From IMG/VR virus record IMGVR_UViG_3300020202_000067, positions 17,335 through 81,334 of that record: a DNA stretch of 64,000 bases, one strand, 5' to 3'. This document shows, piece by piece, positions 22,302 to 55,150 of the stretch. The translations under genes and the position numbers were made by a program. The notes under the pieces are model-generated. The model ran no database searches. It was not told where the DNA came from and worked only from the letters and a program-made list of their open reading frames with translations. The stretch's first letter is position 1. Each line of letters begins with the position of its first letter. The stretch comes from a virus (Duplodnaviria; Heunggongvirae; Uroviricota; Caudoviricetes).

Positions 22302-22586
22302 TTATTCCCAAAGTTCCCATGCTCCATTGACACGACGCACATGCTGTAATGGCTCCCAGCGCTCTCCTTTCTTGTCCCATTTCACAATGATGCCTGGATA
22401 GCGACCGTTTGAATGTGGGCTAGGCGCGTGCCTAACAATGTCGCCAGTGTCGATTTCCTTGCGGACGTTAGCCATGCAACCGTCCCAATCGATCTTAGTG
22501 ATTGTGTGTCCTGATTTGATATCGGCAGCTTCAAAGGTGCCTGGACCAAAGCCTGCGACGTTCAGAATGTGATCCATCAGACTCAT
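22302..22586 (-). CDS. hypothetical protein
   Basis: 94 aa track ORF, 4-nt overlap with the upstream gene. Confidence 0.55.
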   Translation of the reverse strand: MSLMDHILNVAGFGPGTFEAADIKSGHTITKIDWDGCMANVRKEIDTGDIVRHAPSPHSNGRYPGIIVKWDKKGERWEPLQHVRRVNGAWELWE

Positions 22587-22981
22587 TTTGACTCCCTTTT
22601 ATTCCATGGCTTGAACGCCTTGAGTTCGCCAAGATCAGGCCACGAACCTGTGAAGTTGAGCGCGCGGTCGTCGATGGTAACCATGGCGCTAGGCTTGAGA
22701 CGCACGAAGAGGACGTCCTCGAGACCTGGCCCAAGTGGCGTTTCGTTCCAAAGGTTTCCGGCATGCTTCTTGAGCCAACGACGCATTGCCAAGGGGCCAA
22801 AGATGTGCCGCGCCCGCGAGGAGTGCACAACGACATCCCAGCCACTGTTGATTGCATGGTACATGAACAGCAGCGCGCCCGGCACCGGCGGATCCGGGAT
22901 GTTCGTAGCGCCCTTCCATCCTGACGTGTAGGAATGGATGACGCCATCGAAGTCAAGGCAAAGTATTGGTTTCCGTTGCAT
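22583..22981 (-). CDS. HAD-superfamily phosphatase (5'-nucleotidase-like)
   Basis: LCLDFDGVIH (DxDG motif I) near the N-terminus, TIDDR near the C-terminus. Start set at MQRKP after a GGAG RBS. Confidence 0.55.
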   Translation of the reverse strand: MQRKPILCLDFDGVIHSYTSGWKGATNIPDPPVPGALLFMYHAINSGWDVVVHSSRARHIFGPLAMRRWLKKHAGNLWNETPLGPGLEDVLFVRLKPSAMVTIDDRALNFTGSWPDLGELKAFKPWNKRESK

Positions 22982-39894: not shown

Positions 39895-40099
39895 GCTGAA
39901 ACCTCGTCCATGGCAAATCGCGCGGCTTCATCACGCGCTCCATTGTGGTGAATGTTCTTCCACAAGACAAACATTTGCGATGCCGTCTAGCACGACGTGT
40001 CTGCATCACCTTGCTTGCGCTGTACCGGCAATAGGGGCAACAGACCTCTGTCTGCGAACTCTTTGCTCCGGATCTTGGCAGTCTGATCCTAGCCATCAA
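39776..40099 (-). CDS. NrdR-like zinc-ribbon protein (no ATP-cone)
   Basis: CPYCRYSASKVMQTRRA..RRHRKCLSCGRTFTTMERV parallels the NrdR N-terminal zinc ribbon. The 3' 119 nt overlap the VRR-NUC gene and look like out-of-frame sequence. Confidence 0.45.
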   Translation of the reverse strand: MMARIRLPRSGAKSSQTEVCCPYCRYSASKVMQTRRARRHRKCLSCGRTFTTMERVMKPRDLPWTRFQREDRRGTATTISTTSTDGALAGGGDMEHGPRSARHELLP

Positions 40100-42929
40100 T
40101 TTCTCCGAGGTACTTCACAGCCTTGATCTTGATCATGCGGAAGTCAGGCGGAACTGAGCCCTTGATTGCATAGAGCGACTTGCCTACTCGACCTTGCTCC
40201 ACGATCTGCCGACCAATGCGCTCGAAGTCGTAGCGGCTCACCTTGCAAAAGATCATGTCGGTGTCGTCCTTAATGAACAAGTTCAACGCAGCCGTCGGCC
40301 CATTGACCGCGTAGCCGCGCTTCATGACGTTGACGGCTTCGTTCTCATCCTTGGGCGCGATCTTGGAAGCGACGCCGATGATGACAACATCCTTGAACGC
40401 ACCGTCCGCTTGCACATCAATGACTGGCGTTGGCGCAGTGACAATGTTGATTGCTCCAAGATCTGGATGCAGCTCCTTCACCTTGTCAGCTATTGGGAAC
40501 AACGTGTCAATGTCGGTCTTGGCGTTGTCAAGTCGCTTCTTCAAGGTGGCACGCAGCGGTGTTCCTGAGGACCTCGCTTCCATGATCTCGCGGACGGTTG
40601 CTGAACCGATGCCCTTGATCGAGGTGAGAGGACCCACAAGGATCGTCCTCTCACCTTTCTTGATTGGCATCCACTTGTCTGTGGAGTGGTCCGGGTCAAA
40701 GGCGAGATAGTCAATGCCTTCTTCCTTCAACTCGCGCAGCAGCGCAATCTGTTTTGCTGGATCGCTCTCAGCATCTAATGTGGCAGCGGCAAACTCAACA
40801 GGATAATGCGCCTTGAGCCAACAGCAATAATACGACACGAGACCGTAGGCGACAGCGTGCGAACGGTTAAAAGCCCAAGAGCCGAAGGTGTTGATCTGAT
40901 CCCAAACAAGGCGCGCTGTGTCTTCATCGATCCCATTTTTCAATGCTCCATCCTTGAACTTCAACCAGTAGCGTTCGAAGAACTCATTGCCGAGACGGCC
41001 AGACATCGCCTTACGAATAGCAGACGTGTCCTCCCAGGACATGCCTCCCATCTCACGCACGATCTTCATCACCTGTTCCTGATAGATGGTGATGCCGAGC
41101 GTCTCCTTGGTGAGCTCGGTAAGCATAGGATGATAAGAAGATATCGGCTCCTTGCCGAGCTTACGTCGCACCCAGGACCCAGCGCCGCCCGTGGCCATTG
41201 GTCCAGGGCGCGCAAGCGCTGTAATCGAGATGATGTCTTCTAGGTGCGTCACCTCAATCTGCTTCACTAGCGATTGCAACGCCTGACCAGCAAATTGGAA
41301 CACACCAGCGAAGCGGTGCTGACTGAGAACATTGAATGCCGCCGCATCGTCCAATGGCAATCGATCAAAGAAGCGGAAATTTCCCTCTTCGCCGATCAGC
41401 TCCAATGCGCGCTCGAAGATTGAAAGCTGCGTCAGACCCAGAGCGTCGATCTTGAGTAGGTTCAGATCCTCAGCATCCTTCTTGTCGCACATGGCTGCGT
41501 TGGTGCGGCTGTCTACAGCGACATATTCAAGAATAGGCTCATCGGTGACAAGAACGCCAGCCGCGTGTTGCGAGGACGTTGTCGGGTGGCCTTCCATGCG
41601 GGAAGCCATCATGGCTTCTGGAAATTCATTCAGAAGAGACTGACCATTGATTGTCTCCTTGAGCGTGTCCTCAAGTTGCTGCATGGCGCGTGAGTCACCG
41701 GAGGAGCGTTCGATGATGCCGTCAAGCGCCTTGTCAACCTTCCACTTTGGTATGCGCAAGGAGATGCCAGCTTGCTGCAACGCGCTCTTGGGGCCGTACA
41801 TCATCACGGTTCCCAGCCGAGCCATGCGCTCCTCGCCATATTTCTCGGCAATGTACTTGAACACCTCCTCACGCTGCTTGTCAGAGAAGTCAACGTCGAT
41901 ATCTGGCAAATCCGCGCGATTGATATCGATGAAACGCTCAAAGATCAGTCCGTAAGGGATGGGATCTACTGTAGTGATATCGAGTAGGTAGCACACGAGA
42001 CTTCCACAAGAGGAGCCACGTGCCGGTCCGACAGCCATGCGGTCTCGAGCCCAACCAACAATATCTGAGAGGATGTAGAAATAGTCTTCAAACTTCTTGT
42101 CGGCGATAAGCTTAAGCTCCCGATCAAGACGCTCAGCATAGACCTTGTCTTTCAAATTGATGGAGCGTTTCTTCGCTCCTTCAATACACAATTGACGCAG
42201 CGTCTTCTTGCGCTCAGGCTTCAGGAGCGTCGCCTTCCTCAGTTCAGCTCGACATTGCTTGATTGCGTTATCTCTGGCCTTGATGGCAGCAGCCTTGTCC
42301 CGTTCACTAGCAAACCAGACAGCCTCCATCCATTCGTCATCATCAATGATCCATTGCGGATATGTTTGAGTGCCAGCTCTCTTCCCGAGAGCGACACGGT
42401 AAAGCTCAAGATCGGCTTGGCGAGGAAAGACATTGTCGCCGCTAGCGATGAAGCGGAACCCAGCAGCCTTCGCTTGTTTGTAGAGACCAATTGGCGTTGA
42501 TGGTGATAGAGCAACATAGAGATCCTTGTCCTTTTTCTTCACACGCTCAAGCTGCAGACGCTCGCCAGCGATCTTGATCACGCCCTGTGCGGCAAGCGCC
42601 TGCTTGTAAAGCAAGCTCGGCTCACGGCCAGGATTGGCTGTTGCAAGCGCAATGAGCTCATGGATAGAACGCAATGAGTCCTTGGCGAAGAATGTCCAGT
42701 AGTCTGGGCTTGGCCGCTTCTCCCCCAGAGAAGAGACCACTGCTAGTTCTACACCATAGATCGGTCTAAGCTCGTGCTTTGCGCACAGCTTAGACCAACG
42801 ATTAAATCCGAAGGCGCTCGTCCTGTCTGAAATCGGCGCGGCCTTCCACTTGATCTCCTTCAGACGCTCTATAATGTCTGGCAGGTGCCCCACCGCAGTG
42901 CGGAAGGAATATCCCGTGCGTATTCTCAT
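40089..42929 (-). CDS. dnaE: DNA polymerase III alpha subunit (DnaE-type)
   Basis: 946 aa. FERFIDINRADLPDIDVDF and downstream palm/fingers motifs are typical of DnaE. The N-terminal PHP-like region lacks obvious His clusters. Confidence 0.9.
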   Translation of the reverse strand: MRIRTGYSFRTAVGHLPDIIERLKEIKWKAAPISDRTSAFGFNRWSKLCAKHELRPIYGVELAVVSSLGEKRPSPDYWTFFAKDSLRSIHELIALATANPGREPSLLYKQALAAQGVIKIAGERLQLERVKKKDKDLYVALSPSTPIGLYKQAKAAGFRFIASGDNVFPRQADLELYRVALGKRAGTQTYPQWIIDDDEWMEAVWFASERDKAAAIKARDNAIKQCRAELRKATLLKPERKKTLRQLCIEGAKKRSINLKDKVYAERLDRELKLIADKKFEDYFYILSDIVGWARDRMAVGPARGSSCGSLVCYLLDITTVDPIPYGLIFERFIDINRADLPDIDVDFSDKQREEVFKYIAEKYGEERMARLGTVMMYGPKSALQQAGISLRIPKWKVDKALDGIIERSSGDSRAMQQLEDTLKETINGQSLLNEFPEAMMASRMEGHPTTSSQHAAGVLVTDEPILEYVAVDSRTNAAMCDKKDAEDLNLLKIDALGLTQLSIFERALELIGEEGNFRFFDRLPLDDAAAFNVLSQHRFAGVFQFAGQALQSLVKQIEVTHLEDIISITALARPGPMATGGAGSWVRRKLGKEPISSYHPMLTELTKETLGITIYQEQVMKIVREMGGMSWEDTSAIRKAMSGRLGNEFFERYWLKFKDGALKNGIDEDTARLVWDQINTFGSWAFNRSHAVAYGLVSYYCCWLKAHYPVEFAAATLDAESDPAKQIALLRELKEEGIDYLAFDPDHSTDKWMPIKKGERTILVGPLTSIKGIGSATVREIMEARSSGTPLRATLKKRLDNAKTDIDTLFPIADKVKELHPDLGAINIVTAPTPVIDVQADGAFKDVVIIGVASKIAPKDENEAVNVMKRGYAVNGPTAALNLFIKDDTDMIFCKVSRYDFERIGRQIVEQGRVGKSLYAIKGSVPPDFRMIKIKAVKYLGEIDG

Positions 42930-43375
42930 GCAGCCCTCTTCCCCTTGCGCTTATACCTTGGAATGCCAACTTCGCCTTCAACGACGCTGACCAATGCAAC
43001 AGAGCAATCACAACGCTTAGCAATTTCCTGCTGGCTCAATCCCTGCTTCGCCAAGGCGATGATCTTGGCGCGGCGCTCTGGATCATCTGTCTTCGGGCGC
43101 TTCTCAAGGCCAGCGATCCTTGCATAACGTAACACTGTATTGCGGGAGCATCCGTATTTCTTCTGAATATCATTCACCGGAACGCCAGCCTTGTAGTCTG
43201 CCACCACATGCTCAAAGCGCACCAAACGATTGGCGCGCTCATGAGTGAATGAAAAGATGCGCTTCACTTGCGCAATGAATTCAAGGAACGGCTTCACCGC
43301 CTTCCTGGTTCTCAGATACTCCGCCGCATCCTTCAGTGTGAACAGCATCATCTGGATCCTTCTTATTACGCTCAT
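42926..43375 (-). CDS. tandem-HTH DNA-binding protein
   Basis: 149 aa. Two resolvase/psq-type HTH units (IQKKYGCSRNTVLRYA and QQEIAKRCDCSVALVS). The start may be at MMLFTL. Confidence 0.55.
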   Translation of the reverse strand: MSVIRRIQMMLFTLKDAAEYLRTRKAVKPFLEFIAQVKRIFSFTHERANRLVRFEHVVADYKAGVPVNDIQKKYGCSRNTVLRYARIAGLEKRPKTDDPERRAKIIALAKQGLSQQEIAKRCDCSVALVSVVEGEVGIPRYKRKGKRAA

Positions 43376-43616
43376 TGATGCGTTTCATATCTTCAAGCGT
43401 GGCTGCGCCAGACGCCACAACAGCGCATTGCGCCCAACCTAGCCAACGGCATTTCTTGCCATATGACATTGGATCATTTTCATCTTCTCGTTCCCGCATG
43501 CGGTGATACATATTGATCAAATGCGCTGCGCTCAGAGGTCCGCTGTTAGGCAATTTCTGCGCAACGGACGATGCAAGATAAACGGTTTCTTTCATCGCTT
43601 CCATAACATTCATCAA
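43281..43616 (-). CDS. hypothetical protein (RWLGWAQC motif)
   Basis: 111 aa track ORF. The 95-nt 3' overlap with the next gene is unusual. Confidence 0.5.
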   Translation of the reverse strand: MMNVMEAMKETVYLASSVAQKLPNSGPLSAAHLINMYHRMREREDENDPMSYGKKCRWLGWAQCAVVASGAATLEDMKRINERNKKDPDDAVHTEGCGGVSENQEGGEAVP

Positions 43617-44155
43617 AGAATTCCCTTTTTAATGAGTTCAACACAACAGCGCTTGAGCGCCATGACGTCAACCTTGGCGCGATGAGCGCCCTCGAACTTC
43701 TCACCGAACAACAACTCGTGTAGGCCTGAAAGATTCAAGCGGTGACCTTTCAGGTGCACAGTCTGTTCCACAGTGCAGATCCTAATCTTTGGCCAATTAA
43801 CCTTGAGACCGCAACGTTCCGCCTCAATGTCGATCATCTCGATATCGAACGATAAGTTGTGCCCGATAACGATAGGTGATGCCTCGATCAGCTTAATGAT
43901 CTTCGAAGCTACATCCTTGAACGTTGGTGCGTCTTTCACATCCTCCCATTTGAGCCCTGTGATGGAGGTAATCAACTCAGTAATTGCCTCTGGTGAAGAG
44001 GGGCGTACAAGCTGATCGAGCTCATTGATCTTCTTGTCCTTAGCCAAGTCCCAAGTGCAGCCGTAGAATTCGATGAGCTCCGGCAGCTTGTCGTTCTTGA
44101 CTGTGCGGTTCTCAATGAGGCCGGTGGTCTCTGTGTCAAACAATAGAGCCTTCAT
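43613..44155 (-). CDS. dnaQ: DnaQ-like 3'-5' exonuclease (DEDDh)
   Basis: LLFDTETTGL (Exo I), GHNLSFDIEM (Exo II), HRAKVDVMAL (Exo III). Confidence 0.85.
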   Translation of the reverse strand: MKALLFDTETTGLIENRTVKNDKLPELIEFYGCTWDLAKDKKINELDQLVRPSSPEAITELITSITGLKWEDVKDAPTFKDVASKIIKLIEASPIVIGHNLSFDIEMIDIEAERCGLKVNWPKIRICTVEQTVHLKGHRLNLSGLHELLFGEKFEGAHRAKVDVMALKRCCVELIKKGIL

Positions 44156-44595
44156 CCTGGCACCTTGATCCTTGGGCCATCACAACTGACGACTGGCTTG
44201 TGCTCAATATCGCTCCAATCAAAACGCCAGAAAAGTCCGTCTGGCATCTTGAAGATCACCGGAAAGCCTGTTGTCGCTTCGTCTCTGTAGTCATTATTCG
44301 CTTGCTCCTCATCAACTGATTCCACCATAGCGCAATAAACACCGGCATCATGGATAGAGTCGCGATGCGGCTTGCCTGCTTCAATGGAGACAGCATAACG
44401 CGAGAGCTTGACGACGATTAAAGAGAACAGGTGGAAGCGGTCGTGATCCTCCTTGGTCTTCAACGTCACGCCATTCGGAAAGAGTGCAGCGAAGGCTCCG
44501 CCAGCGCGCTTGTAGTTGTCGCCATAGACCTTGTTGCGCTCGCGGAAGGTGTTAGCGCCTTCAGCCAAGATGTCAGCCGCTGTCCGCTTAGTCAT
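44152..44595 (-). CDS. DUF1599-like all-alpha (MazG-superfamily-like) protein
   Basis: Start moved to MTKRTAAD. RNKVYGDNY...VVKLSRY...HRDSIHDAGVYCAM matches the DUF1599 pattern as I recall it. Confidence 0.5.
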   Translation of the reverse strand: MTKRTAADILAEGANTFRERNKVYGDNYKRAGGAFAALFPNGVTLKTKEDHDRFHLFSLIVVKLSRYAVSIEAGKPHRDSIHDAGVYCAMVESVDEEQANNDYRDEATTGFPVIFKMPDGLFWRFDWSDIEHKPVVSCDGPRIKVPG

Positions 44596-45184
44596 TGCTA
44601 TTCCCCTTGGGGTGGATGCGGCGGATGTACTTAATGTAGGTTCCGGGCGCGAGCTCAAAGATGCGGTAGTGGTACTTGCGTCCGGCGCCTCCGCCAGTTG
44701 TAAGATATTCACTGGTGTGACTCTGCGTAAATGTCTCCTGGACGAGCGTGCACCCATCCATTGCAGGAAAATCTGCGCCGTCATCGAGGTGTATTCCTAC
44801 ATGGGAGATGAACTCTCTTCCAATGCCCCATAGAGGATTTCCTGCTTGGTTGTAGCTCACCGGAGCGCCCATTGCATAATGATCTCCAGAAGCTAGGTGC
44901 CAGTGCCTGCCTTCAATGTAAGTCAAGATCTCAAGCTCAATGCCGAGAGAATAGTTGAACTGCAGACGGCCCTTGTTGATGCACCACTGGCCGTCCGGGA
45001 ACAGTGACTTGGCGGTCACGACGTCCTCGACCCAAGGCTCTGTGTCAAGACCCAAGAGAACCTTGATGCGTTCTTCTTGGTCCTTGGTCCTTGCGTAGAA
45101 GGCAATCTGATCAATCTTCATCGGAGGTTTTTCTAGTTTCACGTTCACCACCTTCGTTTTCCAGTTGTCCGGAGAAATGTTCAT
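44588..45184 (-). CDS. VOC (glyoxalase/epimerase)-fold protein
   Basis: Start at MNISPD (ATGA coupling to the SDR gene). KIDQIAFY, IELEIL, ISHVGIHLDD and YRIFEL give a paired beta-alpha-beta-beta-beta pattern. Confidence 0.5.
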   Translation of the reverse strand: MNISPDNWKTKVVNVKLEKPPMKIDQIAFYARTKDQEERIKVLLGLDTEPWVEDVVTAKSLFPDGQWCINKGRLQFNYSLGIELEILTYIEGRHWHLASGDHYAMGAPVSYNQAGNPLWGIGREFISHVGIHLDDGADFPAMDGCTLVQETFTQSHTSEYLTTGGGAGRKYHYRIFELAPGTYIKYIRRIHPKGNSND

Positions 45185-45879
45185 GGCCCACCATACGGAA
45201 TGTCGCACCCGGCGAGATATTTGTGGCGCTCCTTGGAGGAGAGAAGGAATGCGATGAACTCAGCGATGATAGCTGGTGGAGTTTCCTCGCCTGCAGGCAA
45301 AGCAGCAAGTTGATATTCTCTAGCTTGCTGTTCCGTCCACCCTCTGAGCTGCACCACGCGCCGGTCGATCTCTGCACTCATGTGCGTGCCTGACATCTTG
45401 TTGGGAGAGACGCTGAACACGGTGATGTTGTGCGTCTTCTTCAACTCACGCGCCAACTGCTTTGTCAGAATGGCGGCCGCGCCCTTGGAAGCGTTGTAAG
45501 CCGCTGAAGATGTCATTGGCACATGGCTGGCATTGGAAACGATGTTCACCACCGTCCCATCACGCAGCTCTTCAAGAAGCGCCTTGGTGCAAAGGAAGAT
45601 GCCCTTGGCATTGGTGTCCATCACATCATCCCACTCCTGCTCTGGAACGTTTGGCAGGAAGTTGATGCGATTGATGCCTGCACAATTGATTAGAACATCG
45701 ATCTTGTCCAGCCCCCGCTTCAAAAGATCGAGCCGAGCCTGCCCAATAGAAAAGCTGCTCGACACATCAATGTGGTGCTTCAGCGACCAGTCAATCACTC
45801 TCCAGCCATTCTTCAAGAGATGGTTGGAGATCGCTTCACCCAAGCCACTGCTCGCGCCTGTGATAACTGCTGTCTTCAA
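45181..45879 (-). CDS. short-chain dehydrogenase/reductase (classical SDR)
   Basis: TGASSGLG, NCAG and S...YNASK motifs. 232 aa. Confidence 0.85.
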   Translation of the reverse strand: MKTAVITGASSGLGEAISNHLLKNGWRVIDWSLKHHIDVSSSFSIGQARLDLLKRGLDKIDVLINCAGINRINFLPNVPEQEWDDVMDTNAKGIFLCTKALLEELRDGTVVNIVSNASHVPMTSSAAYNASKGAAAILTKQLARELKKTHNITVFSVSPNKMSGTHMSAEIDRRVVQLRGWTEQQAREYQLAALPAGEETPPAIIAEFIAFLLSSKERHKYLAGCDIPYGGP

Positions 45880-46319
45880 TTCTGCCTCCCATGCACCAAG
45901 AGCGCTGTGATACCAGCCTCTCTGAACGCTGCAACGACATCTTCTCTGTCGTCAATGATCAAGGCAACTTCATCTTTGAACCGCTCGCCGAAGCGTTCGG
46001 CGGCCAGCTTAAGCTTTATTTCCGCTGCCGGATGATAAGCCTCGTCCGGCCGCATAAGCAGCTCATCGAACATGGCGCCATGCTTGACGAGCAGCTCCAT
46101 AGTAAGCTTGCGCCACTTCTCCGGTCGTGCCGTAATGCCAACGATGTACATGCCGCCAGCGCGCATTGCATTAATCATGTTGACAACGTCATGGATCGGC
46201 TCGTCATCCTTGGAAGCGGCATGATAAGCGTCCCATCCTCCAGGGCCACCGATCATGTCGTCACGCCAGAAAGCATTCGACACTGTATGATCAATGTCAC
46301 ACAAAACGATCTTCCTCAT
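45876..46319 (-). CDS. HAD-superfamily phosphatase (PNK-phosphatase/5'-nucleotidase-like)
   Basis: CDIDHTV (DxDxT), GITAR (motif II), IIDDRED (motif IV). Confidence 0.65.
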   Translation of the reverse strand: MRKIVLCDIDHTVSNAFWRDDMIGGPGGWDAYHAASKDDEPIHDVVNMINAMRAGGMYIVGITARPEKWRKLTMELLVKHGAMFDELLMRPDEAYHPAAEIKLKLAAERFGERFKDEVALIIDDREDVVAAFREAGITALLVHGRQN

Positions 46320-46561
46320 TGCTTTTGCACTCCTGCCATATTCTCGTAGAGTGCAAGCAATGAAGCATAGACCTTTTGCGGTGGATAAGGCGATGTGCCT
46401 GCATCGAACATCTTGAACTCGTTATCGCGATCACCCTTAAAGAAAGCGATCAAGATAACATGCTCCGCTCCAAGCCGCTCCTTGACTGCAACAGCCTCCT
46501 GATTGGCCGCCTGCTTACGCTGCAAGGCTACTTCTTGTTTGCCCAATTCGTCCTGCGCCAT
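46316..46561 (-). CDS. hypothetical protein
   Basis: Start moved to MAQDELGK (GAGGAGGGAG RBS). 81 aa. Confidence 0.5.
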   Translation of the reverse strand: MAQDELGKQEVALQRKQAANQEAVAVKERLGAEHVILIAFFKGDRDNEFKMFDAGTSPYPPQKVYASLLALYENMAGVQKQ

Positions 46562-46776
46562 GACGCTCCCTCCTCTGCGCACTTGCGCGCTTCTGAAACC
46601 ATTTCCATGTCTTGGGTTGGACGCAACCCGCACTTGACCATCATCTCCCGACGATTGGCCCAGAGCTCAAGAAGCTCTTGGAACAACGGATCGCGCGCCA
46701 ACAATACGAACATTGGCTCGTCATCCTTGGCCTTCTCGTAACAGTCAAACTTGCCGGGGTTCTTCTTGGTTCCCAT
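46528..46776 (-). CDS. hypothetical protein (PGKFDCYEKA..DEPMFVLLARD family)
   Basis: Start at MGTKK after ATGGAGCTGAAG. The motif recurs in phage small proteins, function unknown. Confidence 0.55.
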   Translation of the reverse strand: MGTKKNPGKFDCYEKAKDDEPMFVLLARDPLFQELLELWANRREMMVKCGLRPTQDMEMVSEARKCAEEGASWRRTNWANKK

Positions 46777-46966
46777 CTTCAGCTCCATAGATCTTCATTC
46801 GGACTTTGTGTTCAGTTCTCATAGTGCGGTTCATCTCTTCTGTCATTTCATTTTGCTTCTCCAATGCGTCAGCGATGCGTTTGAGGGAAATTGCTACAGA
46901 TCTGTCATAAAAAGCCTTCCCCGAGCTGAAACTGCCAGCCTCAAATAATTCAACATCTCTGTTCAT
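46745..46966 (-). CDS. hypothetical protein
   Basis: 73 aa track ORF. The ATG shares one base with the upstream stop. Confidence 0.5.
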   Translation of the reverse strand: MNRDVELFEAGSFSSGKAFYDRSVAISLKRIADALEKQNEMTEEMNRTMRTEHKVRMKIYGAEDGNQEEPRQV

Positions 46967-47382
46967 CAGAACTGTTTACCTCCTTCTTTCAGACGGTTCT
47001 CAGGCTTGTGATCTTCACGCTTTTCATTGTACCAGACCTTCTCGAGCACAGCGCCAGAGAGATCAAGTCTGAACGCTCCTCCATAGTCAAAAGCGCGAAT
47101 GAATAGATCTCCCAGCTCGACCTCCTCGCTCTTACGGTGCGGCAAGTGATCATCCATCTTGTCCTTACGCACACCTTCGAGCATCTCAGATAGTTCAGAA
47201 TGCTTGAGCGCAATCATCTCACCTTTGTTTCTTTCGATCCGCTCTCCCGTTCTTGGGTCCTGCCACCACCTTGCGTTTTTGTGGTGCAGGATCGCGGCCA
47301 GCCAGTTGAGGCTTTGCGCGTGTTGAACGAGCAGTCTGTTGATCGTCTCTTCGCTGAACCGGCTCAAGTCTGGTAAGCTCAT
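46966..47382 (-). CDS. MazG-like nucleotide pyrophosphohydrolase
   Basis: Start at MSLPDL. ALKHSELSEMLEGVRK ... EEVELGDLFIRAFD ... EKVWYNEKREDH fits the all-alpha NTP-PPase E..E/E..D pattern. Confidence 0.6.
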   Translation of the reverse strand: MSLPDLSRFSEETINRLLVQHAQSLNWLAAILHHKNARWWQDPRTGERIERNKGEMIALKHSELSEMLEGVRKDKMDDHLPHRKSEEVELGDLFIRAFDYGGAFRLDLSGAVLEKVWYNEKREDHKPENRLKEGGKQF

Positions 47383-47741: not shown

Positions 47742-47863
47742 GACAACGCCCTCATCTGATCGATCAACTTGATCATGTGCGTCTTCTGTTCAGCAGAGAT
47801 TGTGTTGTCAATTCCTGGAAACTGAGAAACAGGAATTGATCTGACGACTTCTCCACGCATCAT
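47738..47863 (-). CDS. small protein (41 aa, not in track) ending in the same 12 aa as ThyX
   Basis: MMRGEVVRSIPVSQFPGIDNTISAEQKTHMIKLIDQMRALS. ATGA overlaps at both ends. Confidence 0.5.
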   Translation of the reverse strand: MMRGEVVRSIPVSQFPGIDNTISAEQKTHMIKLIDQMRALS

Positions 47864-48825
47864 TGCGCCGGAACCGCGACTGGTGTTGAACTTGGCAGAA
47901 CCATAACATTAACCTTGCCTGTCTCTACAGCCTTCATGAGAGCATCGGCTCGCTCCTTCTCAGCCAGAGCCAACAGCACATCACGAATTTGCGCTGGCGT
48001 GAAGTTGTCAGGCAATTGCTCAAACAAGCGCTTGACACCAATGCCTTCATTCGAGCGTCTTGCCGCTTGCTCCTCAGCTATCTGCGTCAGCAATTTTTGG
48101 CGCTTGCGGTCCTCTTCAGAAGCCATGCGTTCAGCAATAGCGTTAAGCACCTTGGCGTCTGGCAGCACTTCGCGCAGAAGCACCGGCATGAAGGTGATTG
48201 CGCCCTTGGCCTCTGTATCCGTGAAGCCAAGCTTGATGAGATCATTGTTCACGGCGCGAACGACTTCCTCCATCATGCGCTGTTCAACGTCCGCGCGCCG
48301 CTCAACGCTAGCGTCTGCCCATGGAAATGAGGCGATTGCGTCTCTGACCGCGGCCCTTGCGGCGGGAACAATAAGATTGCGTTCAAGTGCATCCTCGTCG
48401 CCAATGCGCTGCAGGATCTTCCATGCGACTGAAGGGTTGATGGAGTAGGGGAAGGAAGCTTCCACCTGCACCGGGTTATGATCCTTAGACATCGACACAA
48501 TGGTCGGGCCGTCTGCGTCTTTGGCCTTGGCTGAGAAGTCAACGGACCGGCGCTGGATGGAGATCTTGGTGACGTCGTACATCGGGTTCATGAAGCGCAA
48601 CCCTTCAGGATAGGCTGTCTCCTGCACCGCGCCGAACCATTGGCCAACGCCAACATGGCCTGTGGAGACAGGGCTGATGGACATGATCAATGACCAAATG
48701 GCAGTGACCACCACACCTGCAACAAACCACAAACCAGCCAGACCTCCGCGACCGTCCAGCAACGAGAAAAGAGTCGCAATCAGAACGATAAAAGCGATGA
48801 TGCCTACACCAACAAGAAACAACAT
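47860..48825 (-). CDS. SPFH/band-7 (prohibitin/stomatin-like) membrane protein
   Basis: 321 aa. Two N-terminal TM helices, an SPFH-like core, then an A/E/R-rich coiled coil. Confidence 0.7.
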   Translation of the reverse strand: MLFLVGVGIIAFIVLIATLFSLLDGRGGLAGLWFVAGVVVTAIWSLIMSISPVSTGHVGVGQWFGAVQETAYPEGLRFMNPMYDVTKISIQRRSVDFSAKAKDADGPTIVSMSKDHNPVQVEASFPYSINPSVAWKILQRIGDEDALERNLIVPAARAAVRDAIASFPWADASVERRADVEQRMMEEVVRAVNNDLIKLGFTDTEAKGAITFMPVLLREVLPDAKVLNAIAERMASEEDRKRQKLLTQIAEEQAARRSNEGIGVKRLFEQLPDNFTPAQIRDVLLALAEKERADALMKAVETGKVNVMVLPSSTPVAVPAQ

Positions 48826-48835
48826 GTCTTCCTCC

Positions 48836-49594
48836 TCAGGAAAGAGCTCTCATCTGGTCGATCAGCTTGATCATGAACCTCTTCTCCTCGATTGAGATCG
48901 GGAGTTGTCTGATGTGATTGTCAAGATCATTCGCTGCCTTATCGAACGTTCGCTCGATAAACAAGTCGATCCAAGGGTGCACGGCGCGCACCGCAGTCTT
49001 CATGTCCTCAAGCACGTCACGGTATTCGCCCTGGGTGCGGGATGAGGAGCGCTTGCGCACCACATCAACAAACGTGCGCATGTTCATCTTGGCGACGATG
49101 TTGGTCAAGATGTTGGTGGGCAAGATGCCGCGTGCGTCTTCGATCGCAGCGCCATTCTTAATTAGCTCCTTGTAAACTGTATCAGTGAACGACATGCCTT
49201 GATCATAGATATGTTGTAGTCCTTCACTCTCAACGATGCTCGGCCCTGTCAGGTAGTCCCACCCCGGACCCTCGCTCACGTCCAAAACGCGCATGGTCTG
49301 TTGAGCAAAGCTGGCGGTGCGCGTGCGCACAAACTGGTGCGTGAAGGCGCGCGTCACATCCTCAATGACGAAGGTGTAGTCAACAAACTCCCAACTCGAT
49401 GGGATCGTATTGGCCATGTATTCGAGCTCCTTCCAGAGCTCAGCGATCGGCATGTCGAGGTATTTGCGCAAGCCTTCCGGGTTCATGGTGAGGCGCGTGT
49501 TCTTGGTGAACACAAGCAGTGCCGCCGCATAGTGGCTGGCATCCAGCCGCCCAGACCCGGTGTAGTCAAGCAGTGAGACCTTCAGCTTCTTCAT
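48836..49594 (-). CDS. thyX: flavin-dependent thymidylate synthase-like protein (divergent signature)
   Basis: Start at MKKLKVSLLDYTG. Signature RTRTASFAQQTMR versus the canonical RHRxxSxxxxSxR. About 30-aa C-terminal extension. Confidence 0.7.
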   Translation of the reverse strand: MKKLKVSLLDYTGSGRLDASHYAAALLVFTKNTRLTMNPEGLRKYLDMPIAELWKELEYMANTIPSSWEFVDYTFVIEDVTRAFTHQFVRTRTASFAQQTMRVLDVSEGPGWDYLTGPSIVESEGLQHIYDQGMSFTDTVYKELIKNGAAIEDARGILPTNILTNIVAKMNMRTFVDVVRKRSSSRTQGEYRDVLEDMKTAVRAVHPWIDLFIERTFDKAANDLDNHIRQLPISIEEKRFMIKLIDQMRALS

Positions 49595-50273
49595 CGCTCT
49601 CTCCATAAACTCTCTCAAGCACCTGCCGGACCTTCATGAGATCCATCTTGTCGTCCACTGTCCGCACGCCGCTTTCCATGTCGATGTAGTACGGGCCGCG
49701 CGCATTCATCTTGACCAGTTCAGCAACAACTTTGTCAGGGTTGAGGCCGCCTGAATAACCGTTGATGCCTTGCTTGTTTTCAAGATAGCGAGGCCAATGC
49801 TCTGGTCGGAGACCTCTTCCGCCTGAAGGATCATACAACCAATCTACCCGAGGATCAGTCGGCATCGCCGGTAATTGATGCTGCAACACCACGCGCACGC
49901 CATACTTCTTGCTGAACTCTACAGCATGGTCTTTCCAAAAGACATCTCCTGAAACAGGACGATAGTTGACCTGCACCCTCTGGAAACGCGACCATGGTAT
50001 GCTTGGACTGACAGGGTCAAGATCGCCGGTGTCGATGATCTTCTTCGCAAAGTAACCACAGATGTGCGCGGAGAGCGGCAACATCGATCTGGCCAGCTCC
50101 TTCACGTATGCGTAATCTGGGTAGCGAGGATGATTGCCGCTCTTGGTCGGCGAGAAGAGCACACCCCATTCAATGCGGCCGAGGTTCTCACGCGTGATCA
50201 CTTCAGCGTCGTTGATGTAGATGCTCTCATCGATGCCGGTGAAGGTGATGTGGTTAGGGAGCAACATTGCCAA
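49566..50273 (-). CDS. TrpF (phosphoribosylanthranilate isomerase)-like TIM-barrel protein
   Basis: Collinear with TrpF blocks: ITFTGID, EWGVLF, VQVNY, LYDPSGGRG, YSGGLNPDKV, IDMESGV. The TrpF catalytic Cys position is Thr. Confidence 0.5.
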   Translation of the reverse strand: MAMLLPNHITFTGIDESIYINDAEVITRENLGRIEWGVLFSPTKSGNHPRYPDYAYVKELARSMLPLSAHICGYFAKKIIDTGDLDPVSPSIPWSRFQRVQVNYRPVSGDVFWKDHAVEFSKKYGVRVVLQHQLPAMPTDPRVDWLYDPSGGRGLRPEHWPRYLENKQGINGYSGGLNPDKVVAELVKMNARGPYYIDMESGVRTVDDKMDLMKVRQVLERVYGESDEEAEGLTA

Positions 50274-50526
50274 ACCTCATTTGCCCGATGGTCCTTGCAT
50301 CAAGTTCTTTTACCCGCTCTTCCAATTTCTTCAGCCTTTCAACTTCATCCTTGCCTTTAAAAGAGCCACAAAAGTCGTCCTTAAAGGTTAATGGCCAATT
50401 GGCGCTTTTCCAAGATCCAGGAGCCATTTCTTCTGCGCCACTCTTAGGAGGAGCGCCGTGACAGAACCCATATCCCTCCTTCCAAGGTGCAAACCAAGAA
50501 CACTTTTCACAATTGTTGTTGTTCAT
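50254..50526 (-). CDS. small Cys-rich protein
   Basis: CEKCSWF...GFCHGAPP...WPLTFKDDFCGSF, then a coiled-coil tail. 90 aa. Confidence 0.55.
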   Translation of the reverse strand: MNNNNCEKCSWFAPWKEGYGFCHGAPPKSGAEEMAPGSWKSANWPLTFKDDFCGSFKGKDEVERLKKLEERVKELDARTIGQMRFGNVAP

Positions 50527-51455
50527 CTATGCCTCGCTAGCTTGTATCCACGGTCCTTGGATGCGATCCATTTGTCAATGAGGCGGACGTCATTGACGAG
50601 GTCGTCTAGCAGCAAACCAGGACGCCACGTCGCGAAGCGTCCCAAGGAGAAGACGCCGTGCTTGTCGGTCGCCCAGTGAATGAACTCTTTGCGCATGTAG
50701 TCATCCACCGGAGCTATTTTTGCATAGCGCTGCTCCACGGCACGAGGATTTTCCACCCAAGCGCTCGAGATGCCAAGCATCGTGCAGGCTTCTCTCGCCA
50801 AGTCGTCTGCATCGATTTGACTGGCATTCACTCCAGGGATCTCGACAATGAGCTCATTGCCAGTGAGCGAAACGCGCGAGATCGGGTTGCCTGGATCTGT
50901 GACCAGGATCGAAACATAAGCGTCGCAACGCGCAACAGCAGCTCGTACATTGACACCGTGCATCCAATTGAAAAGGAACTTGTCGCGCAACGGATATTGA
51001 AGGGCATCCATCAACAAAGGCATAGGGATGGTCGAGACCGTCACCACATTCGGGTCTCTTTCTGCACCCTCCCTATAAAATTCATAGTCTGTGTCAAAGA
51101 GCGCGCGCACAGGATCAGCCATCTGCTGGATGAGATCTGGCGGAGCGATCCAACGTTCAGACGCGACGAGGCCATCAATGACGGACCGGTCTGAGCGGTA
51201 AACCTGATTGTTCTTGTAGGAATAAGCCAACGCATCCGCCACCGGGTTCAGCCACGGCAGCGCATACTTGATCATCTTCACCTTCTTGAACTCGATGCCG
51301 AGAACGTCGCCAATCTGCGGCGTGCGGAAGCGCAACACGGCTGAGTGATTGTTCGGCAGACCCTTTTGCTTTTCATACACGATAGGCTGGCGATGTTGCA
51401 GCATCCGCGCCGCGAGTAGACCTGCCATCCCGGCACCTACAATTTCGAGTTTCAT
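50523..51455 (-). CDS. FAD-dependent enzyme, UDP-galactopyranose-mutase/amine-oxidase-like
   Basis: N-terminal IVGAGMAGLLAA (GxGxxG) and C-terminal GRFATWRPGLLLDD, resembling the UGM GRLxxYxYxxMD segment. Confidence 0.55.
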   Translation of the reverse strand: MKLEIVGAGMAGLLAARMLQHRQPIVYEKQKGLPNNHSAVLRFRTPQIGDVLGIEFKKVKMIKYALPWLNPVADALAYSYKNNQVYRSDRSVIDGLVASERWIAPPDLIQQMADPVRALFDTDYEFYREGAERDPNVVTVSTIPMPLLMDALQYPLRDKFLFNWMHGVNVRAAVARCDAYVSILVTDPGNPISRVSLTGNELIVEIPGVNASQIDADDLAREACTMLGISSAWVENPRAVEQRYAKIAPVDDYMRKEFIHWATDKHGVFSLGRFATWRPGLLLDDLVNDVRLIDKWIASKDRGYKLARHR

Positions 51456-54494: not shown

Positions 54495-55061
54495 CTAGAC
54501 CCCCATCCAATCATTGTCCATTGCTTCATTAGTGTCCCAGATGCAGTACTCCACCTCAGTCTTTCCGATAATGTAGTTGCGCCTCATCAAGACTTCCCTT
54601 GCATCTTGCAGCAGCTTCTCAAACCAATAGCGCGTGGTCCGCGCTCGCATGGTGAGGATCCTGTATTCGCGATCATGCCGTGTGGAGAGATGCATATTGA
54701 GGCAGTGCAACAGCTCCCGGTCGAAGAGCTCAGGAGTGTGCACATGCACGTGCGCCTCGAAGTATCCCTTCTCATCGAACGGCACTCGTTGCGGTGCGTT
54801 CGGGTGCCATGGAACGGTTTCGATTTTCTTGCGAATGATTTCAATGTCGAAGTCTTTTTGTAAAAACTCCGACTGGTCCTCCATCTCACGCCGCGCTTGC
54901 AGTTCAAGCTCACAACGAACAATTTCAGACGTGAGAAACTCACGCTTCAAGTTGCCGTCCGGAAGATGATTGTCGATGACAATCAAATCAAGCCCAGCAG
55001 CTCTGATTTTATCGCCAGGATCATTTGCCAGCGTGAGATGAATTTCATACGGCAAATTCAT
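54495..55061 (-). CDS. putative 2H phosphoesterase (LigT/CPDase-like)
   Basis: Start at MNLPYE (CAGGAGAA RBS). Two H-x-T/S-x candidates: EIHLTLA and NMHLSTR. 188 aa. Confidence 0.4.
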   Translation of the reverse strand: MNLPYEIHLTLANDPGDKIRAAGLDLIVIDNHLPDGNLKREFLTSEIVRCELELQARREMEDQSEFLQKDFDIEIIRKKIETVPWHPNAPQRVPFDEKGYFEAHVHVHTPELFDRELLHCLNMHLSTRHDREYRILTMRARTTRYWFEKLLQDAREVLMRRNYIIGKTEVEYCIWDTNEAMDNDWMGV

Positions 55062-55084
55062 GACCATTCTCCTGATTGGGAGAC

Positions 55085-55150
55085 GGCGGGAGAGTGCTCC
55101 CTTCTCCCCCGCCGCCATCACCGTCTGCGCTTTCCGTGTTGAACAGACGG
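55085..55150 (-). other. two GC-rich hairpins in 92-nt gap after the 300-aa gene
   Basis: GGCGGGAGAG / CTCCCCCGCC (55085-55113, 9/10 bp) and CCGTCTG / CAGACGG (55121-55150). Confidence 0.5.

Follow-up and report, generated by a model that had tools for sequence, protein, structure and literature searches.

What task is shared by a phosphatase, a short-chain dehydrogenase/reductase (SDR), a VOC-fold protein and a small, predicted all-alpha domain protein whose genes stand together upstream of a phage replicase was the question raised by a 64,000-nucleotide stretch of the viral record IMGVR_UViG_3300020202_000067, hereafter the window. The early/replication operon of this window occupies the minus strand from ~22 kb to 58 kb, as delimited by open reading frame (ORF) lists and by the negative GC skew over the span, and within it the HAD, SDR, VOC and DUF6378 genes constitute one phage-specific, co-translated enzyme cassette, situated between a p310-ThyX pair and the DnaQ-DnaE pair. 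We tentatively favour the interpretation that the cassette tailors a sugar-type thymidine hypermodification, as found chemically in the related Pbunavirus. The conserved block reads, in the direction of transcription:

50523..51455, minus strand: p310, an FAD/NAD Rossmann flavoprotein (phrog_4828) with a UDP-galactopyranose-mutase/protoporphyrinogen-oxidase-like fold.
48836..49618, minus strand: a divergent ThyX-like flavin-dependent thymidylate synthase (Pfam Thy1, 112.7 bits).
45876..46319, minus strand: a HAD-superfamily phosphatase of the polynucleotide kinase-phosphatase (PNKP) phosphatase type, 147 amino acids (aa), first gene of the tight four-gene cassette.
45181..45879, minus strand: a classical SDR, 232 aa, TTG start (adh_short, 128.3 bits, cut-off 26.6).
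44588..45184, minus strand: a candidate metalloenzyme of VOC (glyoxalase/dioxygenase) fold, 198 aa as called, from a phage-restricted family lacking a Pfam model.
44152..44595, minus strand: a DUF6378-like small domain protein, predicted all-alpha, 147 aa, related to DUF1599/Nmad1, with a core of ~95 aa and a window-specific C-terminal tail.
43613..44155, minus strand: a DnaQ-like DEDDh 3'-5' exonuclease, the proofreading subunit of the replicase (RNase_T, 63.7 bits, cut-off 24; phrog_192, E 4e-34).
40089..42929, minus strand: a DnaE-type DNA polymerase III alpha subunit, the anchor of the conserved block.

The positions and strand that the first-pass annotation had given for these ORFs were confirmed by an independent gene call on a public Logan contig, which returned identical products of 138, 147, 232, 198, 147 and 180 aa. 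The chain of 4-8-nucleotide (nt) start/stop overlaps that it had described could also be read in the sequence at all four junctions: 4 nt between the HAD stop and the SDR TTG start (TTGA), 4 nt between the SDR stop and the VOC ATG at 45184 (ATGA), 8 nt between the VOC stop and the DUF6378 ATG at 44595, and 4 nt between the DUF6378 stop and the DnaQ ATG at 44155 (ATGA). A promoter and terminator scan from 39.9 to 52.5 kb yielded sites no more frequently than shuffled sequence. Start/stop overlaps alone are common in phages, and it is the conserved gene order that exceeds chance. The same-strand order p310-ThyX-HAD-SDR-VOC-DUF6378-DnaQ-DnaE was found in 38/38 IMG/VR viral contigs, each of them selected through the presence of a VOC relative, wherever the contig reached far enough. 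ThyX was located 5' of HAD in 27/38 loci, HAD 5' of SDR in 28/38 (the other loci end short), and SDR orthologues, with 42-73% identity and a well conserved C-terminal substrate region, were present in 37/38. The median gaps over the 38 loci were 4 nt (p310 to ThyX), 342 nt (ThyX to HAD), 5 nt (HAD to SDR), 2 nt (SDR to VOC), -4 nt (VOC to DUF6378) and 145 nt (DUF6378 to DnaQ), revealing two tight sub-operons, p310-ThyX and HAD-SDR-VOC-DUF6378, joined to each other and to DnaQ by looser links.

The arrangement extends to cultured phages. Xanthomonas phage XcP1 (Carpasinavirus) and E. coli phage Bas99 (Wifcevirus) carry ThyX, a HAD::DUF6378 fusion, SDR, VOC, a DEDDh exonuclease and DnaE in this order; Microbacterium phage RikSengupta carries an oxidoreductase, a phosphatase, SDR, VOC, an X::DUF6378 protein and DnaE, with a glycosyltransferase gene just 3' of the last. 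Orthologues of the SDR occur in Carpasinavirus, Wifcevirus, the MyoSmar-like Serratia phages, Pantoea phage Kyle, Luteibacter phage Pluto, Aeromonas phage Gekk3-15 and actinophages of Microbacterium and Gordonia. The Pbunavirus phages 14-1 and F8 have p310, ThyX, HAD::DUF6378, exonuclease and DnaE, without SDR or VOC. In Gordonia phage Fulcrum, gp70 (L042, 3440-4135), labelled 'nucleotide pyrophosphohydrolase', shows the HAD motifs DIDGT, TTRP and LDDE; it follows a p310-like oxidoreductase, indicating that the flavoprotein-HAD pair is conserved in actinophages too. The window encodes proteins like Pam3 gp33 and gp34, which place it in the Pbunavirus-related supergroup, and it has no close cultured relative, since, when the region was compared with cultured phages at the nucleotide level, solely the MazG-like gene described below matched, in Pakpunavirus-like phages. 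No literature description of the cassette as a unit, or of its VOC family, was found, and GenBank annotation of the genes is piecemeal, with labels such as 'FabG-like reductase', 'polynucleotide kinase/phosphorylase' and 'hypothetical'. The first-pass annotation had connected SDR and VOC with nucleotide chemistry and had named scattered homologues as a finding that would speak against this; the opposite was observed, with the pair in the same place beside the replicase in all 38 contigs and in the cultured phages, and a tie to nucleotide or DNA chemistry is supported by this context and by the domain fusions reported below.

The VOC protein gave no match in sequence searches of Pfam (E <= 0.1), PHROGs, NCBIfam or the PDB. 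The fold, which the first-pass annotation had named, was borne out through structure prediction alone, as a confident model of paired beta-alpha-beta-beta-beta modules forming a cupped sheet, with glyoxalase I and methylmalonyl-CoA epimerase as the closest folds; a distant family member (P0360) scored 26.5 bits against Glyoxalase_4, whose cut-off is 27. Compared with those two enzymes, the window protein is 8-17% identical, carries Asp-Gln where the first strand has His, contains a long insert at residues 78-100, and is phage-only, without a Pfam model. An alignment of 36 sequences (the window protein and 35 homologues) showed E62, E64, H107, H111, H135 and H151 to be invariant together with an Asp/Gln, residues that indicate an active enzyme and of which the His and Glu are candidate metal ligands. 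A start of the MKIDQ type was the first or second codon in 34/35 of the aligned homologues, two of which have N-terminal extensions, so that the true VOC start is probably at 45121; the SDR/VOC overlap would then give way to a 59-nt spacer, and this link of the overlap chain may vanish. Among 5.8 billion proteins 149 homologues were retrieved, many of them on phage-genome-sized contigs and none of those listed with a recorded Pfam domain, while a profile search of 1.84 billion representatives yielded 415 family members. A scan of 185,579 bacterial and archaeal genomes, one per species, detected a single VOC locus, on an 18-kb contig of a metagenome-assembled genome, indicating that the family is essentially confined to phages.

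The next gene had been called DUF1599-like, a label that gave way to DUF6378: none of 20 orthologues matched DUF1599 (PF07659) at E <= 0.05, and 11/20 matched DUF6378 (PF19905; best E 3.9e-6). The window protein itself scored 14.7 bits against PF19905, under the cut-off of 27.1, and its C-terminal half matched phrog_4889 (E 9e-22); a PDB profile search with the alignment found no relative. The orthologue alignment showed ten invariant residues (Y24, G32, P40, G42, K63, R66, D79, S80, D83 and Y87) and no conserved MazG-type glutamate cluster. VOC::DUF6378 fusions were identified in five long representatives of the VOC family (P0260, P0283, P0333, P0363 and P0379), both domains at E <= 1e-36, and HAD::DUF6378 fusions in three genera (Wifcevirus, Carpasinavirus and Pbunavirus), which marks DUF6378 as a partner common to the two catalytic proteins. 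One of the long VOC members is a fusion to DUF1599 (Pfam 'Nucleotide modification associated domain 1'), and two further ones have an N-terminal extension that resembles DUF1599 by eye but matches neither Pfam nor a local hidden Markov model. Because the invariant residues exclude the MazG glutamate cluster, we infer that DUF6378 probably binds substrate for VOC and HAD or acts as their adaptor, rather than being a pyrophosphohydrolase. Apart from these, P0270 joins VOC to DUF3310 (E 3e-9), which brings the small all-alpha phage domains fused to VOC to three kinds.

The HAD, SDR and DnaQ family calls of the first-pass annotation were upheld by Pfam scores above the cut-offs. The HAD protein scored 53.3 bits against HAD_PNKP (cut-off 27.6) and matched phrog_415 (E 3e-31), its DxDxT nucleophile is present as CDIDHTV, and its best PDB sequence match was the Pnkp1 phosphatase domain (4xrp, E 3e-6); judged from these similarities, it is nearest to polynucleotide 3'-phosphatase domains, not to dNMP 5'-nucleotidases. 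It shares the HAD fold and the DxDxT motif with the phosphatase domain of T4 and bacterial PNKP. The PNKP identity given as a label in relatives was rejected, the 147 aa consisting of the HAD domain alone, without a P-loop 5'-kinase; in the fused relatives the second domain is DUF6378 and not a kinase, so that the 'polynucleotide kinase/phosphorylase' labels of GenBank and PHROGs are misleading. The SDR displays the cofactor motif TGASSGLG, NCAG and the catalytic Ser-Tyr-Lys (S...YNASK) of classical SDRs. It is about equally similar to many housekeeping reductases and falls far under the cut-off of every NCBIfam SDR equivalog; FabG, the label carried by relatives, was rejected for this protein (TIGR01830, 93.8 bits against a cut-off of 297.75). 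DnaQ presents the Exo motifs DTETTG, HNLSFD and HRAKVD, with the Exo III His of the DEDDh class, and DnaE is 35-39% identical over its full length to phage DnaE proteins, with Pfam DNA_pol3_alpha on the called gene. A double helix-turn-helix protein (HTH_23, E 7e-13; 42926-43375, minus strand) and a 110-aa ORF (43281-43613) lie between DnaQ and DnaE, which abut in many relatives. The DnaE gene is interrupted in IMG/VR contigs L011 and L013, where a break of ~0.8 kb separates the tblastn matches and is suggestive of an intein or inserted element, and in RikSengupta DnaE is annotated as two coding sequences.

At the other end of the block, UDP-galactopyranose mutase (UGM), a nucleotide-sugar flavoenzyme, was the top match of p310 both by profile and by fold; 2,536 homologues of p310 were found, and in relatives the gene is tightly coupled to ThyX. 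The ThyX-like protein has the motif VRTRTASFAQQTMRV (RTR...TMR) where solved ThyX enzymes have RHR...S-x-R-(Y/F), and its matches to ThyX structures in the PDB reached E 1e-4 at best. Its activity may differ from that of ordinary thymidylate synthases.

A chemical precedent comes from Pbunavirus. The virion DNA of phages F8 and 14-1 contains thymidine derivatives of 362 and 390 Da, which take the place of roughly one T in four, in TG context, and were interpreted as a tetrose sugar-alcohol derivative and a cyclised aldopentose derivative; these phages lack the genes earlier implicated in hypermodification, and the responsible genes were not identified (Yee et al. 2025, PMC12191111). We found no later literature naming them. 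By arithmetic, both masses equal 5-hydroxymethyl-deoxyuridine plus a tetritol or pentose minus water. A narrower proposal, somewhat more doubtful than the general one, is that p310, the ThyX-like protein, HAD and DUF6378 form the missing gene set for the pentose/tetritol thymidine hypermodification of Pbunavirus, to which SDR and VOC would be an add-on giving a new adduct in the window phage, Wifcevirus, Carpasinavirus, the MyoSmar-like phages and the Microbacterium Krampusvirus. On the general reading, the core common to Pbunavirus (flavoprotein, ThyX, HAD and DUF6378) would make a phosphorylated sugar-derived group on, or install it onto, a uracil/thymine nucleotide or DNA; DUF6378, small and non-catalytic, would bind nucleotide and so recruit HAD or VOC to the nucleotide-linked substrate, and HAD would take the phosphate off the appended phospho-sugar or off a 3'-phosphorylated intermediate. 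The SDR could then oxidise or reduce a sugar hydroxyl or carbonyl with NAD(P), and VOC, with a bound metal, could enolise the resulting keto-sugar, leading to epimerisation, isomerisation or dehydration. With such tailoring, the adduct of the SDR-VOC lineages would be chemically different from that of Pbunavirus. A second published phenotype comes from the Wifceviruses, which resist all tested defence systems except EcoP1_I (Humolli et al.). The genome of Bas99 contains 38 EcoRI, 8 EcoRV, 92 EcoCFT_II and 89 EcoP1_I sites, indicating that site avoidance does not explain the restriction resistance. Literature searches for DNA modification in Wifcevirus or Carpasinavirus, for in-vitro digestion data and for SDR-glyoxalase-ThyX links in phages retrieved nothing relevant.

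Several observations weigh against a role in hypermodification. The genes are tied to the modification only by position and plausibility, and the DNA chemistry drawn on comes from Pbunavirus phages, which lack SDR and VOC. F8 makes its sugar-alcohol adduct without a phage SDR, which is thus not needed for that chemistry. The adducts of F8 and 14-1 differ, yet the block is only mildly divergent between the two: HAD::DUF6378, the most divergent protein within it, is 79% identical in aa with indels, against 93-99% for its neighbours. In another protein, 14-1 gp67, the first 132 aa align nowhere in F8. The block was not singled out by the comparison: the genome segments that diverge most are located elsewhere, and among non-structural genes gp71, encoding a coiled-coil/zinc-ribbon-like protein that looks non-enzymatic, is the most divergent genome-wide. 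Pfam or PHROG scans of ~45 window ORFs, which took in some but not all of the small ones, revealed neither a ThyA-like dUMP hydroxymethylase, a 5-hydroxymethyl-deoxyuridine (5-hmdU) DNA kinase or aGPT-Pplase nor a glycosyltransferase. Having been selected through VOC, the loci could also reflect a block inherited as one replication module without shared function, and a protein inhibitor could account for restriction resistance in Wifcevirus. Sugar-type thymidine hypermodification is nevertheless a coherent reading: it agrees with the enzyme types, with a VOC family restricted to phages, with fusion partners that are nucleotide-associated domains, with the location 5' of the polymerase and with the two published phenotypes.

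Other genes of the region, some of which bear on the competing explanations, are:

46966..47382, minus strand: a putative MazG-like nucleoside-triphosphate pyrophosphohydrolase, 138 aa (phrog_5658 'pyrophosphatase', E 7e-51).
46316..46966, minus strand: three small overlapping ORFs (73, ~82-86 and 81 aa) between the MazG-like gene and HAD, without family match, also called in the Logan contig.
49566..50273, minus strand: a 235-aa accessory protein with weak TrpF similarity, a window-specific insert between p310 and ThyX.
22583-22981: a second HAD protein with DxDGV, SSR and DD motifs (phrog_1238, E 3e-13), outside the block.

Two MazG-superfamily proteins had been proposed for the window. The product of 46966-47382 is a candidate for one by its PHROG match and its acidic motifs (HSELSEMLEG...EEVELGD), although it matched no Pfam family and no PDB sequence; the product of 44152-44595, lacking both the glutamate cluster and a match to DUF1599 or a MazG-clan model, is not supported as one. 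A MazG-like homologue lay within the flanks of 1/38 loci only, and the gene is a variable neighbour outside the conserved cassette; local phmmer comparison of the window protein with the MazG-annotated proteins of 14-1, F8 and Gordonia phage Fulcrum detected no similarity. The second HAD protein noted by the first-pass annotation is likewise supported by its motifs and profile match, but it is encoded 23 kb away. The 235-aa protein matched the NCBIfam phosphoribosylanthranilate isomerase (TrpF) models at E 3e-4, far under the cut-offs, with no Pfam or PHROG match and no homologue in 40 related loci (L001-L040); a TrpF/HisA-type Amadori isomerase beside a MazG/HisE-like domain is reminiscent of the histidine pathway, with its chemistry on N-ribosylated nucleotides. 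An SPFH/Band-7 membrane-type protein (47860-48825, minus strand; Pfam E 7e-18) stands within the replication operon, between ThyX and the MazG-like gene, and was not seen there in relatives. Further upstream, a 208-aa protein (54495-55121, minus strand) has a weak PHROG 'MazG-like pyrophosphatase' match (E 2e-5), no Pfam match, and HLTL and HVHV motifs that by eye recall 2H phosphoesterases. In the structural half of the genome, 10359-19343 on the plus strand is occupied by a single ORF of 2,994 aa.

Four other explanations were weighed. It is rather unlikely that the genes serve housekeeping and dTMP supply, with DUF6378 and the MazG-like protein turning dUTP/dCTP or damaged dNTPs into monophosphates for ThyX, HAD trimming the excess, and SDR and VOC being auxiliary metabolic genes of a generic kind, serving for instance redox balance or the detoxification of methylglyoxal, that simply travel with the early operon. 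ThyX does lie in the block, Asgard viruses have a DUF1599 gene alongside those for dUTPase and ThyX, a set interpreted as serving thymidylate supply (bioRxiv 10.1101/2021.07.29.453957), and the acidic motifs of the MazG-like protein are canonical; the SDR resembles many housekeeping reductases equally, and the closest folds to VOC are those of glyoxalase I and methylmalonyl-CoA epimerase. A generic enzyme would be expected in cells, however, from whose 185,579 species genomes the VOC family is essentially absent, and the order and coupling of SDR-VOC-DUF6378 are kept from proteobacterial phages to actinophages. Housekeeping is also at odds with the fusion of VOC to DUF6378 and DUF1599 and with a DUF6378 alignment devoid of the MazG-type glutamate cluster. 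The similarity of HAD to PNKP phosphatase domains and its co-transcription with a 3'-5' exonuclease would alternatively fit end healing or anti-defence, in which a PNKP-type 3'-phosphatase and DnaQ clean 3'-blocked ends left by host nucleases, and SDR and VOC deal with a 3' lesion of sugar origin or break down an immune signal or poison derived from nucleotides; the broad resistance of Wifceviruses to defence systems other than EcoP1_I agrees with this as well. We consider it improbable, given that the cassette has neither a kinase nor a ligase partner, that the link from DUF6378 to DnaQ (median 145 nt) is looser than those inside the cassette, and that the SDR and VOC folds are not tied to known signal-degrading enzymes; no PADLOC or anti-defence family evidence turned up, though no search was aimed at it.

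Since the cassette adjoins ThyX, a flavin- and folate-dependent enzyme, supply of its cofactor also has to be considered, with the pyrophosphohydrolase-like protein and HAD dephosphorylating a pterin or flavin precursor, the SDR acting as a pteridine/dihydrofolate-type reductase, VOC isomerising a diketo side chain and p310 recycling flavin. Textbook biochemistry offers parallels in the SDR-type pteridine reductases (FolM, PTR1 and sepiapterin reductase) and in dihydroneopterin triphosphate, which is handled by a pyrophosphohydrolase and then a phosphatase; it also teaches that ThyX yields no dihydrofolate, hence that no extra reductase is needed. The scanned window ORFs included no GTP cyclohydrolase or other pterin gene, the SDR is not preferentially similar to pteridine reductases, and the fusion of VOC to nucleotide-associated domains is left unaccounted for, making this scheme slightly more improbable than end healing. 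Least probable of the four is the nucleotide exclusion envisaged by the first-pass annotation, in which dNTP pyrophosphohydrolases (the MazG-like and DUF6378-like proteins) and a dNMP phosphatase (HAD) remove a canonical nucleotide while SDR and VOC make a full replacement base. Two MazG-related and two HAD proteins were counted in its favour, as was the linkage of the cassette to the replicase. It conflicts with the retention of a ThyX-like gene in the block, the 3'-phosphatase type of HAD, the DUF6378 protein without MazG residues, the absence of the MazG-like gene from 37/38 related loci and the partial, motif-specific modification of Pbunavirus (~25% of T), which is not base replacement; PurZ, a ThyA-like hydroxymethylase and dCTP deaminase were not seen among the scanned ORFs. 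Ribonucleotide-reductase-independent 2'-deoxygenation of ribonucleotides, detoxification of viperin products and CoA-thioester metabolism were set aside for lack of support.

Thymidine hypermodification, if it is the function of the cassette, would have practical consequences, as Pbunaviruses rank with the most widely used phages of Pseudomonas therapy and their DNA hypermodification was found only recently. The candidate genes are available in cultured, tractable phages (Bas99_0046, _0048, _0049 and _0052; 14-1 gp58 and gp66). The broad restriction resistance of Wifcevirus would be explained; hypermodified thymine would arise through ThyX/flavin, HAD, SDR and VOC chemistry, without the known hydroxymethylase, kinase and Pplase enzymes; a phage-only VOC clade, DUF6378 adaptor domains and a UGM-like flavoprotein would join the biochemistry of DNA modification; and the misannotations 'FabG-like reductase', 'polynucleotide kinase/phosphorylase' and 'phosphofructokinase' would be corrected. 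Should the proposal be refuted, the cassette would stay a phage-restricted enzyme set without explanation, conserved from actinophages to proteobacterial phages.

Thymine with carbohydrate-type substituents occurs in SP-15, YerA41 and Carin-5 (PMC12686479), whose genomes encode nucleotide-sugar modification blocks. With genomes of 145-222 kb these phages are large; they possess family A polymerases and blocks of glycosyltransferase genes, and the SDR-VOC-DUF6378 cassette is not reported for them. The pathways of M6, ViI, SP10 and PhiW-14 (Lee et al. 2018, PMC5889632) and of the M6-like phage SN1 (PMC9476957) also involve 'nucleotide modification associated' domains and a modification of T that is partial, and in M6-like phages the genes lie upstream of the polymerase, as the cassette does in the window. 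They employ a ThyA-like dUMP hydroxymethylase, a 5-hmdU DNA kinase, aGPT-Pplase, radical-SAM enzymes and pyridoxal phosphate enzymes, none of which was found among the scanned ORFs of the window, whose block has ThyX, a UGM-like flavoprotein, HAD, SDR and VOC in their place. Pbunavirus F8 and 14-1 belong to the same supergroup as the window phage and have the backbone p310-ThyX-HAD/DUF6378-DnaQ-DnaE in common with it, and their sugar-derived modification fits the UGM-like flavoprotein, the phosphatase and the sugar-type redox enzymes of the window. In Pbunavirus HAD and DUF6378 are fused and unaccompanied by SDR and VOC, whereas in the window they are separate proteins with the SDR-VOC pair encoded between them.

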